Counted from the stretch's first letter, positions 137 to 4,112 are shown. The stretch: 4,112 nt of DNA from Escherichia coli (GCF_036507355.1 NZ_AP027884.1), one strand, 5' to 3'. Numbers and translations: made by a program. Notes: generated by a model not told the origin, from the letters alone.

Positions 137-159
137 ATCAGCAAGTTGGCAGCATTACC
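137..159. repeat. IS1 terminal inverted repeat (IRL)
   Basis: Reverse complement begins GGTAATGCTGCCAACTT, the canonical IS1 terminus. Confidence 0.85.
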
Positions 160-369: not shown

Positions 370-1038
370 CTAATAAAAAGACCTGTTTAACTTATTTTTA
401 TATTCAAGTATAGATCTTTTTATTATATGATACGAGGAGGAAAAGATAACGGCTATAATTAACGTTAGAGCCATAATTAAAGCTGGTTTATACTTTTTAT
501 TCACTATTTCATTATTTATTGAAATGAAGTTTTTTTCTCCGGTGGTGTTTATTTTTGTTAATAATGCAACTTTTGCATATGTTTCAGTGCCATTTATATA
601 GTTGCTGTCCTGGTTGTTAACTATGCTTTTATAAGTTTTATAATCTTGGATGTACCAGTCATCAATAGCTTTATGGATAGCGTTTACTTCAGCGGTAATC
701 AGTGGTTTGTAACGGTCATCACCAGCCCATGACAGGATTATTTTTTTTCCTTTTTCATCTATATTTGATGTTATAGACTTGCTTTTATTGTTTATAATTG
801 ATTGTATGATATTCGCTTTACAATAAAAGTCAGACCCACAGTTAATAATCATACTTGGTGAATTAGCGATCATATTTAATTCGTACTTTATATTTATTTT
901 GTTTTTGTTTATCAGTAAGAAAATAGATGACAAAATCAATGAGAAAACAACAAACAAAATAATACTCACGATTTTTTTCTTAAGAAAGAGAAATAACTCG
1001 ATGAAATCAATATCAGGTGAATTGTTTTCCATTTTCAT
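370..1038 (-). CDS. Short Wzz/Cld-like polysaccharide co-polymerase family protein (222 aa, bitopic membrane protein: N-terminal TM, about 140-aa periplasmic domain, C-terminal TM)
   Basis: A 669-nt ORF in roughly 25% GC DNA, where stop codons are frequent, is very unlikely by chance. The N-terminus MKMENNSPDIDFIELFLFLKKKIVSIILFVV parallels the Wzz motif M..ENN...IDLI(D/E)LL.QLW.GK..II followed by a TM helix. The C-terminus KPALIMALTLIIAVIF plus short basic tail parallels the Wzz C-terminal P-rich/TM segment. Hydrophobic stretches at about residues 23-43 and 186-206. Confidence 0.55.
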   Translation of the reverse strand: MKMENNSPDIDFIELFLFLKKKIVSIILFVVFSLILSSIFLLINKNKINIKYELNMIANSPSMIINCGSDFYCKANIIQSIINNKSKSITSNIDEKGKKIILSWAGDDRYKPLITAEVNAIHKAIDDWYIQDYKTYKSIVNNQDSNYINGTETYAKVALLTKINTTGEKNFISINNEIVNKKYKPALIMALTLIIAVIFSSSYHIIKRSILEYKNKLNRSFY

Positions 1039-1318: not shown

Positions 1319-1426
1319 TGAAAACGAAAAAACCACCCGGCAAGGTGGTTTTTCGAAGGTTCATTAAACCGGCAAGTTTATGAACCGTGGTAACAGGGTG
1401 TACAAGACCGCTGCCACCAAAATCGT
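1319..1426 (-). ncRNA. RNAI: RNA I antisense copy-number control RNA (about 108 nt)
   Basis: Complementary to the 5' region of RNA II. The 5' end is placed by alignment to the pMB1 RNA I start (ACAGUAUUUGG, here ACGAUUUUGG). The 3' stem-loop ACCACC-loop-GGTGG plus U-tract lies at 1325..1350. Confidence 0.8.
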
Positions 1427-2130: not shown

Positions 2131-2164
2131 CTCTAACAACCTCTCAGCTACTGGATATCACCCC

Positions 2165-2314
2165 ATGCCATCTGAATATGATGAACAACTGGATTCGACT
2201 GATACGCAGCTTCCCGGCGAATATGACCTTTTTGATTTAATGGCGCAGGTTACTGAAGAGAACCTGCACGCCCCGGTGGATTTTGGGCCGCCTGTCGGCC
2301 GTGAAGTGTTATAG
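2165..2314 (+). CDS. Hypothetical small acidic protein, 49 aa (MPSEYDEQLDSTDTQLPGEYDLFDLMAQVTEENLHAPVDFGPPVGREVL)
   Basis: Hand-translated ORF immediately downstream of the bom-like segment; no clear Shine-Dalgarno; no recognised family. Could be a chance ORF. Confidence 0.25.
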   Translation: MPSEYDEQLDSTDTQLPGEYDLFDLMAQVTEENLHAPVDFGPPVGREVL

Positions 2315-2697: not shown

Positions 2698-3066
2698 ATG
2701 GCGAATTTTAACCCTGGTCCAAGAACAGCCATTGCAGCTGTCAGGGATTCCAAGAACGATATAGAAACCTGGAAGAAAAATGGTATCCGTAGGGAAGAGA
2801 TTGTGACTGTACTGAATAAACGTTACGGCCTGAATATCTCACTGGTTGCGTTTGATAAGGCTCTTTACAGATTGAGAAAAAGTACAGATGAACCGTCTCT
2901 TGCTGATGTGGATTCTGTGTCTGCTGCAGAAACGAATTTCTCTGAAGCCAGTGGGCCTGAAAATGGTTTTTTTCTGTCCGGGAATGACTTCATGCGAGCA
3001 GAAGAAGAATCTCAAAGAATGGTTGAGTCATTCAGAGATAGCCTTGGCAGGAAGAAAGGATTCTGA
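2698..3066 (+). CDS. Hypothetical protein, 122 aa from ATG 2698 (ORF track extends to a TTG at 2656); basic N-terminal half, acidic C-terminal tail; possible DNA-binding protein
   Basis: Open frame of 120+ codons directly downstream of the phased repeats; N-terminal segment NGIRREEIVTVLNKRYGLNISLVAFDKALYRLRK is HTH-like by eye; no family recognised with confidence. Confidence 0.5.
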   Translation: MANFNPGPRTAIAAVRDSKNDIETWKKNGIRREEIVTVLNKRYGLNISLVAFDKALYRLRKSTDEPSLADVDSVSAAETNFSEASGPENGFFLSGNDFMRAEEESQRMVESFRDSLGRKKGF

Positions 3067-3386: not shown

Positions 3387-3414
3387 GGTGCACGCAACGG
3401 ATGTTATGGTAAAT
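3387..3414 (+). other. Xer site-specific recombination site (cer/psi-like multimer resolution site): XerC arm GGTGCACGCAA, 6-bp central CGGATG, XerD arm TTATGGTAAAT
   Basis: XerD arm is identical to the cer XerD arm; XerC arm differs from psi (GGTGCGCGCAA) at one position; 11+6+11 layout. About 200 bp of potential accessory sequence lies upstream. Confidence 0.6.
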
Positions 3415-3503: not shown

Positions 3504-3526
3504 GGTGATGACTCCAACTTACTGAT
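3504..3526. repeat. IS1 terminal inverted repeat (IRR)
   Basis: GGTGATGACTCCAACTTACTGAT, the canonical IS1 terminus. Confidence 0.85.
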
Positions 3527-3914
3527 AGTGTTTTATGTTCAGATAATGCCCGATGACTTTGTCATGCAGCTCCACCGATTTTGAAAACGACAGTGACTTC
3601 CGTCCCAGCCTTGCCAGATGTTGCCTCAGATTCAGGTTATGCCGCTCAATGCGCTGCGTATATCGCTTGCTGATAACGTGCAGTTCTCCCTTCAGGCGTG
3701 ATTCATAAAGCGGCCAGCCATCCGTCATCCATACCACGACCTCAAAGTCCGACAGCAGGCTCAGAAGACGCTCCAGTGTGGCCAGAGTGCGTTCACCGAA
3801 TACGTGCGCCACAACCGTCCTCCGAATCCTGTCATACGCGTAAAACAACCAGCGCTGGCGTGATTTAGCGCCGACGTAACCCCGCTGTTCGTCCATTTCA
3901 GCGCAGACAATCAC
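3519..3914 (-). CDS. insB: IS1 InsB (shown from first in-frame ATG; in IS1 the transposase is the InsAB' fusion made by -1 frameshift at the A6C motif, here complement of about 3959..3967)
   Basis: ORF-track protein [28 protein letters not shown]...HYLNIKHYQ matches IS1 InsB; the TTAAAAAAC slippery motif is present on the minus strand just upstream. Confidence 0.9.
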
Positions 3915-3940
3915 ATCACCGCCCGGTTGTATGCGCTAGG

Positions 3941-4112
3941 TTACCGACTGCGGCCTGAGTTTTTTAAGTGACGTAAAACCGTGTTGAGGCCAACGCCCAT
4001 AATGCGTGCACTGGCGCGACATCCGACGCCATTCATGGCCATATCAATGATTTTCTGGTGCGTACCGGGCTGAGAGGCGGTGTAAGTGAACTGTAGTTGC
4101 CATGTTTTACGG
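3941..4112 (-). CDS. insA: IS1 InsA, 3' portion (stop codon = complement of 3941..3943)
   Basis: The frame continues from the window start; 34 codons + 1 junction codon + 57 codons gives 91 aa plus stop, the InsA length. C-terminal sequence ...[16 protein letters not shown] is followed by TAA. Confidence 0.85.

Follow-up and report, generated by a model that had tools for sequence, protein, structure and literature searches.

What is the 49-codon reading frame that lies beside the bom-like site of a small Escherichia coli plasmid, and is its product of any use to the plasmid? The earlier note on this DNA had described a highly acidic frame with no obvious ribosome-binding site and had suggested either a small protein, for example an anti-restriction or modulator protein, or the eroded remnant of a mob-region gene. 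The frame, hereafter ORF49, is present with exactly the sequence reported there, and its acidic character is borne out by direct count: 6 Asp and 6 Glu stand against 1 Arg and 1 His, for a net charge of about -11. In-frame stops occur 5' of ORF49, the nearest ~20 codons before the ATG. Since the window (the whole 4,112-nt stretch analyzed, NZ_AP027884.1) holds 46 ORFs of at least 30 aa, the length of ORF49 could by itself be due to chance, which cannot be said of its homology and its pattern of conservation. Its parts are as follows.

2165-2314, plus strand: ORF49, ATG to TAG, 49 codons, product MPSEYDEQLDSTDTQLPGEYDLFDLMAQVTEENLHAPVDFGPPVGREVL.
2165-2212, plus strand: codons 1-16, an acidic N-terminal leader that evolves neutrally with its frame preserved and in which AbrB homology is undetectable.
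2213-2311, plus strand: codons 17-49, a homologue of the MazE-type C-terminal tail by hhalign, BLASTP, NCBIfam, and PDB matches.
2151-2158, plus strand: CTGGATAT block, a possible weak Shine-Dalgarno sequence 7-14 nt 5' of the ATG, singled out by its invariance across haplotypes.

ORF49 has no Pfam match at E-values up to 1, and its relationships emerge from closer comparisons. By BLASTP, residues 20-48 align without gaps to residues 53-81 of E. coli MazE at 41% identity, reaching the MazE end; positions 53-81 of the 82 in the NCBIfam MazE model NF007312 also match, as do the PDB chains 7d2n_E, 1mvf_D, and 1ub4_C. When the ORF49 family was compared with 13 canonical MazE proteins using hhalign, residues 17-49 fell on columns 49-81 of the 81-column MazE profile with a probability of 98.9% and an E-value of 3.3e-17. 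Canonical tails have six invariant residues (L55, T60, N63, H65, G71, and E77 in the reference), and all are kept, as L25, T30, N33, H35, G41, and E47 of ORF49, within the common pattern Y/F-x-L-x-x-L...T-x-E-N-L-H...D-(F/W)-G-x-P-x-x-x-E-V. In MazE, a SpoVT/AbrB DNA-binding domain at the N-terminus is followed by a disordered C-terminal region, which wraps MazF and acts partly by filling the RNA-binding groove of the toxin (PMC4803016). Given this two-part architecture, a match confined to the tail means that ORF49 represents the toxin-binding half only; judged by its sequence, it is a truncated mazE that is predicted to encode just the acidic, disordered MazF-binding tail. The homology is secure, as is the architecture of an orphan reduced to the tail. 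The idea of a remnant thus holds to the extent that a larger gene has been truncated, whereas the mob origin does not: Pfam and NCBIfam give no Mob match, no Mob protein is found among 123 + 43 homologues, and descent from a ColE1 mob gene (MbeA-D / MobA-D) was rejected because the sole homology is to the MazE C-terminal tail. In an AF2 prediction of MazF-linker-MazF-linker-ORF49 as a single chain (13-row MSA), pLDDT was 85-93 for MazF and 30-44 for ORF49, and the positive control with residues 34-82 of E. coli MazE, the cognate tail, gave 33-41 for that segment; neither model had a confident pose, so that this set-up is blind even to the cognate pairing.

Relatives of ORF49 were sought exhaustively across 1.8 billion representative proteins and in a genome scan. 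The full-length MazE relatives are 79-82 aa long, carry a KKWGNS..VRIP AbrB domain, and have tails 57-63% identical to ORF49 that end in GPPVGRE(V/A)(W/L), with an overlapping PemK/MazF gene directly 3'. No full-length close ancestor was recovered: a word-indexed search of proteins yielded nothing beyond near relatives of 49 aa and variants with frameshifts or run-on ends, and the best full-length relatives share at most 63% tail identity, with no DNA-level similarity beyond patches of ~30 nt. MazE proteins of enterobacterial plasmids (IncN and others) reach 48-58% tail identity. Synteny does not support an IncN origin of ORF49, as IncN mazEF lies near repA and resolvase and not by oriT.

The remainder of a mazEF module is missing from the plasmid. 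Across the whole window, tblastn with five MazE/MazF pairs at E-values up to 100 matched only the tail, at 2216-2311. The five MazE proteins found no N-domain (AbrB) anywhere in the 4,112-bp plasmid, nor does it hold a MazF/PemK gene, the best MazF matches being scattered and having E-values of at least 0.1; a MazF remnant downstream of ORF49 and an AbrB remnant upstream are thereby ruled out. No palindromic operator or autoregulated promoter was found 5' of ORF49, where the DNA is the bom-like region, and the palindromes near ORF49 lie downstream and match an IncN oriT. The same absence extends to the 139 ORF49-bearing loci (653 kb), none of which has a MazE N-domain or a MazF adjoining ORF49; the single PemK comes with its own PemI, 1.2 kb away. 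This case is a 21-kb metagenome contig with ORF49 (L076, 5805-8480) in which a complete pemI-pemK pair lies ~1.2 kb from ORF49; tblastn shows 100% identity of the pair to PemI and PemK of R100, and the contig is probably a cointegrate or larger plasmid.

Set against E. coli MazE (mazEF; PDB 1UB4, 1MVF; NF007312), ORF49 shares the acidic, disordered tail, which in MazE binds MazF (PMC4803016), and is without residues 1-50, the SpoVT/AbrB swapped-hairpin domain responsible for dimerization and operator binding. It likewise has no downstream mazF and no upstream operator or promoter. With the AbrB domain, the linked toxin, and the operator all absent, ORF49 is better filed as a MazE-derived fragment than as a MazE toxin-antitoxin (TA) system. 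Tails 48-63% identical to ORF49 occur in plasmid-borne MazE-MazF pairs of Enterobacterales (for example on IncN pCFSAN004085, on pK432-IMP, and on an E. coli plasmid of 104 kb) and in environmental MazE proteins that end in GPPVGRE(V/A)(W/L); the C-terminus reads ...FGAPVGKEVL in the IncN MazE versus ...FGPPVGREVL in ORF49. Unlike ORF49, each of these MazE proteins is full-length (79-82 aa, PF04014), and a PemK/MazF gene comes next.

The replicon that carries this fragment is a complete small ColE1-type plasmid of E. coli, linearized within IS1. Because IS1 runs across both ends of the window, the window represents the whole circular plasmid. Among its relatives, NZ_CP080073.1 is 100% identical over the test segment and the 4,112-bp pCE35-5 is 98.8% identical. 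Besides ORF49, the plasmid carries the following.

1324-1425, minus strand: RNAI (Rfam).
3504-4112 plus 1-159, spanning the window ends: IS1 copy, 768 bp.
3504-3526 (plus strand, 3 mismatches) and 137-159 (minus strand, 1 mismatch): IS1 inverted repeats.
3519-3914, minus strand: InsB-like ORF inside IS1.
2698-3066, plus strand: StbA-like ORF of 122 aa, its N-terminus matching NCBIfam NF041290 (E 1.7e-9, residues 8-65).
370-1038, minus strand: AT-rich Wzz/FepE-like ORF of 222 aa, with GNVR domain PF13807 (E 4e-9) and weak Wzz/WzzB N-terminal matches.

As RNAI is on the minus strand, ORF49 is co-directional with RNAII. Upstream of ORF49, at ~2072-2133, lies a bom-like site, a putative equivalent of the pBR322 bom sequence; pi in the bom core is 0.059. 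Downstream, starting ~70 bp 3' of ORF49, the 120 nt at 2385-2505 show 83% column identity (~73% by blastn) to the IncN/MOBF oriT region. The counterpart of this segment in pR16.0676_34k is intergenic, with a traK-like/T4CP/MobF operon on one side and stbABC on the other. The match includes the hairpin TGTAATACG-TTG-CGTATTACA (TGTAATACGTTGYGTATTACA) and a nic-like motif (TTGCGTATGGTGTAT..CCATTAAGGGATA). Hairpins lie at 2339-2356 and 2393-2413, and GTTGCGTAT occurs twice, at 2401 and 2474. Across 97 haplotypes, the hairpin arms (2338-2358 and 2393-2413) hardly vary whereas the loops do, and 780 PLSDB records match the IncN-oriT-like segment. Relaxase-less relatives of the plasmid are typed "mobilizable" by MOB-suite. 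These relaxase-less ColE1-type plasmids thus seem to carry a second, IncN-type oriT beside their bom-like site, and ORF49 is situated between the two putative transfer origins, the ColE1-type bom-like site and the IncN-type oriT. The StbA-like gene stands 3' of the IncN-like oriT, in the same order as stbA in IncN and IncW plasmids, and imperfect 41-nt direct repeats (2606-2646 and 2658-2698) precede and overlap its start. At 3387-3414 on the plus strand, GGTGCACGCAA-CGGATG-TTATGGTAAAT forms a XerC/XerD-type core with a 6-bp central region (1 match against 0 expected by chance), a putative multimer-resolution core like those of ColE1 cer and CloDF13 parB. From its domain matches, the ORF at 370-1038 is predicted to encode a short polysaccharide chain-length determinant of the Wzz/FepE type, and it probably corresponds to the "fepE" accessory gene that PMC6807383 mentions on RelN-RNA type 3 plasmids.

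ORF49 is far from peculiar to this plasmid. A 191-nt segment around it occurs in 565 PLSDB plasmids, all 90-100% identical, hosted by E. coli (260), Klebsiella (156), Salmonella (65), and Shigella (58), among others; 513 of the 565 are typed "mobilizable." Among complete E. coli genomes, 253 of 5,426 carry it, at 286 plasmid and 12 chromosomal places. ORF49 sits within a conserved block (window ~1950-2502) outside of which the cargo varies: of 139 ORF49-bearing loci, a StbA-like gene is present in 42 and Rop in 40, and further cargo includes Rop plus HTH, entry exclusion, sul2-strAB, and others. Both the 6.2-kb and the 8.4-kb sul2-strAB plasmids of the p9123 type carry ORF49. It is a fixed part of the ori/bom backbone in a large family of small multicopy ColE1-type plasmids of Enterobacteriaceae.

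Existing annotation places ORF49 among MazE-type proteins. Among the matches listed, RefSeq often names it [quoted passage not shown]; one annotated CDS is NZ_CP080073.1 3470-3619 (PGAP). In older records it appears as "hypothetical protein" or "PbsX family transcriptional regulator, partial." The DNA-binding domain of the PGAP name is precisely the part that is absent. A literature search by the RefSeq protein accessions of ORF49 found no papers. A "MazE TA system" has been reported on all RelN-RNA type 1 (p9123-family) and some type 3 plasmids (Branger et al. 2019, PMC6807383), and this system is very probably ORF49; the type 3 family is described with a fepE accessory gene, and the studied window has one likewise. 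In that paper, the TA system was taken from annotation only, the missing toxin and DNA-binding domain go unmentioned, and no functional or evolutionary analysis is given. What is already known, then, is that ORF49 is labeled MazE-type; what is new here is that it is tail-only and an orphan.

Whether the fragment still matters to its carriers was approached through its variation. We gathered 146 copies of ORF49 from plasmid records, genome contigs, and a metagenome scan whose search pattern fixed 23 nt of ORF49, and 138 of them are intact with the same start and stop. Stops and frameshifts in homologous plasmids, which the earlier note had held to speak against a protein, do occur, but breakage is limited to 8 of the 146 copies (5.5%): Q8 to stop in two backgrounds, Q15 to stop, two start losses, and one 1-nt deletion. 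The protein database holds additional frameshift and stop-loss variants. The earlier note had also proposed examining conservation and dN/dS across related plasmids; here, substitutions were mapped by Fitch reconstruction on a neighbor-joining tree of 97 haplotypes. In codons 20-49, 58 synonymous versus 39 nonsynonymous events give an omega of 0.26 (p 3e-11), event counts being inflated by recombination and homoplasy; when each distinct change is counted once, 19 synonymous and 19 nonsynonymous changes give 0.38 (p 0.003). In codons 1-19, omega is ~1.3 and variable sites are spread 10/10/10 over the three codon positions. Twenty-three pseudo-frame controls from the same region and its flanks ranged from 0.39 to 2.6 by events and from 0.68 to 2.3 by distinct changes, so the true-frame tail has the lowest omega of the 25 frames tested; the lowest control is an antisense frame whose third positions coincide with those of the true frame. 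The NG86 (Nei-Gojobori) method applied to 29 plasmids gave 0.23 for the tail and 0.51 for the N-terminus.

Tail events fall 26/15/56 by codon position; variable sites alone, at 9/6/15, are not significantly skewed (p 0.12), and the case for selection is built on the sorting of synonymous from nonsynonymous changes, the pseudo-frame controls, and the depletion of indels. Indels are depleted ~7-fold relative to the flanks, with 1 distinct indel in the 150 nt of ORF49 versus 15 in 269 nt of flanks, where ~7-8 would be expected in ORF49 (Poisson p ~0.002-0.007). Nonsense events number 3 against ~5.7 expected, which is not a significant depletion, and substitution density is similar inside ORF49 (1.1-1.2 events per site) and in the flanks (1.2-1.9). 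Two residues of the tail vary notably. Nearly half of the copies have Ser in place of F40, the counterpart of MazE Trp73 and a position at which almost every canonical tail has an aromatic or hydrophobic residue; Asn33, invariant in canonical tails, is replaced by Ile in ~12 copies. The tail codons are apparently under purifying selection, whereas the N-terminal leader, 16-19 acidic residues without a set sequence, only needs to keep the frame. Since all copies carry the truncation, their divergence post-dates it and is no ghost of selection on the full-length gene; the periodic substitutions and the preserved frame after truncation argue that the tail is translated and that its sequence matters.

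Signals for that translation are faint. There is no canonical Shine-Dalgarno sequence 5' of ORF49, in agreement with the earlier note; the sole candidate is a GGA 9 nt before the ATG, whose duplex with the anti-Shine-Dalgarno is -3.1 kcal/mol. Positions 2152-2158 show zero parsimony changes across the 97 haplotypes and adjacent positions vary, and it is possible that the CTGGATAT block serves ORF49 as a Shine-Dalgarno sequence. No sigma-70-like promoter was found on the plus strand at 1900-2750, and the promoter/terminator scan found no terminator near ORF49. Rfam at E-values up to 1 returned RNAI only, with no RNA family over ORF49.

The reading we prefer, to which we would give an even chance, is that ORF49 is an expressed, tail-only orphan antitoxin that neutralizes MazF-family toxins in trans. 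The peptide would be made at a low per-copy level through RNAII read-through and the weak Shine-Dalgarno sequence, and plasmid copy number may compensate for this low expression. It would then act in trans as a minimal orphan antitoxin or decoy, binding MazF-family toxins from the chromosome or from co-resident plasmids and blunting their activity, and the outcome might be an anti-addiction or anti-post-segregational-killing effect. For a toxin-less MazF-binding module, the most economical function would be to neutralize a MazF-family toxin made elsewhere. Counted against this proposal are the absent promoter, terminator, and true Shine-Dalgarno sequence, the 8 broken copies, F40S and N33I, and a tail that is only 41% identical to that of E. 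coli K-12 MazE. A further point against it is that a monomeric tail would be expected to be without the avidity that dimerization gives MazE and to be short-lived through rapid degradation.

Comparable tails occur in MazE-like proteins from metagenomes and genomes that also lack AbrB (P0125, P0132, P0135, P0129, P0131, P0145, and P0149), which have the same C-terminal module as ORF49; some of these relatives are 47-54 aa long with acidic or disordered N-termini, like ORF49. AbrB-less MazE-tail modules elsewhere are located as follows.

L170, 2501-3288: AbrB-less MazE-tail module.
L026, 279-446: AbrB-less MazE-tail module.
L028, 1223-1378: AbrB-less MazE-tail module.
L171, 834-977: AbrB-less MazE-tail module.
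L173, 187-351: AbrB-less MazE-tail module.

P0125 (144 aa, from a 5.7-Mb genome) has two tandem tails and no AbrB domain, and its gene, unlike ORF49, directly overlaps a PemK toxin gene; this precedent suggests that a tail can serve without the AbrB domain. End to end, P0129 shares 51% identity with ORF49, the M-x-S-E-x-D-E start included, and is encoded on a GC-rich, non-ColE1 contig beside a transpeptidase-family gene. Tail-only orphans of 47-54 aa with no adjacent toxin are P0129, P0149, P0145, and P0136, in unrelated contexts that are GC-rich or unassigned. Orphan antitoxins and anti-addiction modules are a reviewed concept (PMC10790755, PMC7354431). Like ORF49, orphan antitoxins have no toxin on the same replicon, are widespread and retained, and could act in trans. 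Those described are normally full-length proteins with a DNA-binding domain, encoded on chromosomes, whereas ORF49 is a neutralizing tail alone on high-copy, relaxase-less plasmids. No cognate toxin shares a replicon with ORF49 as part of its own module, and its variation points to selection rather than decay, with the broken copies and the F40S and N33I changes as caveats.

A narrower version of the antitoxin proposal, which seems unlikely though worth stating, is that a relaxase-less "hitcher" plasmid uses ORF49 as a minimal, free-standing 49-aa antitoxin against a MazF-type toxin of its conjugative helpers or its host. IncN-type helpers are candidate toxin sources because the plasmid carries an apparent copy of their oriT 70 bp downstream. 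If this were true, the small plasmid, together with its host, would be spared post-segregational killing or growth arrest by MazF, and ORF49 would be an anti-addiction or anti-defense peptide without a DNA-binding domain, of which orphan MazE tails elsewhere might be the same class.

The main competitor to an expressed antitoxin, a tentative possibility that deserves serious weight, is a non-functional relic: an old recombination would have deleted mazF entirely together with the 5' half of mazE, leaving no useful product, and the leftover would persist by lying in a young, often recombining backbone between two cis-acting transfer origins. A relic would account for the combined absence of promoter, Shine-Dalgarno sequence, operator, and toxin partner, for the 5.5% of copies with nonsense, start-loss, or frameshift changes and the other disrupted variants known, and for substitutions in the tail at sites that are conserved elsewhere (F40S in about half of the copies, N33I). 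The neutrality of the N-terminal 19 codons, a per-site substitution density similar to that of the flanks, and the lack of significant nonsense depletion point the same way, and the similar toxin-less, tail-only ORFs elsewhere could be independent relics. A relic does not, however, readily explain a tail omega of 0.26-0.38 that is the lowest of 25 frames, the ~7-fold indel depletion, or start and stop codons that stay in place in 138 of 146 copies in the face of a nucleotide divergence reaching ~10%, all of it accumulated after the truncation and so not attributable to earlier selection on a full-length gene. With purifying selection on the tail and indels depleted, a simple eroded remnant is not the best fit.

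It is decidedly improbable that ORF49 is a functional small acidic protein unrelated to toxins, such as a relaxosome/oriT modulator or an anti-restriction or anti-defense nucleic-acid mimic. Its place between two putative transfer origins, its strongly acidic composition, and the evidence of selection and frame preservation would suit such a role, and mimicry is plausible in principle because the MazE tail partly occupies the RNA-binding groove of MazF (PMC4803016). Yet ORF49 has no similarity to ArdA, Ocr, KlcA, or any defense or anti-defense family; the anti-restriction protein suggested earlier finds no match in Pfam, PHROGs, or PADLOC at E-values up to 1, and acidity alone is not diagnostic. 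Moreover, the selected part is exactly the MazF-binding module with its signature residues all kept, whereas the more acidic N-terminus is neutral, and the many different modules found downstream (StbA-like, Rop plus HTH, entry exclusion) argue against a dedicated partnership with any of them. Least credible of all is a non-coding, cis-acting DNA or RNA element (an oriT/bom accessory part or sRNA) with ORF49 incidental, for although conserved neighbors, the bom core and the near-invariant hairpin arms, flank ORF49 and expression signals were not found, tail substitutions concentrate at third positions of the true frame, where omega is lowest, such an element would cause neither three-base periodicity nor selection against only frame-breaking indels, no Rfam family lies at ORF49 at E-values up to 1, and the protein-level homology to MazE is highly significant.

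Should ORF49 be no more than a relic, both the name "DNA-binding domain-containing protein" and the published tally of a "MazE TA system" on these plasmids mislead, and plasmids with ORF49 should not be scored as carriers of toxin-antitoxin stability. If it is functional as an orphan antitoxin, the neutralizing tail of a type II antitoxin would have been retained as a gene in its own right, 49 residues long, on multicopy plasmids that are very common: they occur in ~5% of complete E. coli genomes as well as in Klebsiella, Salmonella, and Shigella, and the sul2-strAB resistance plasmids are among them. Helper-dependent plasmids could then interfere with the addiction or defense toxins of other replicons, which would bear on plasmid-plasmid conflict, the persistence of resistance plasmids, and the role of orphan antitoxins.
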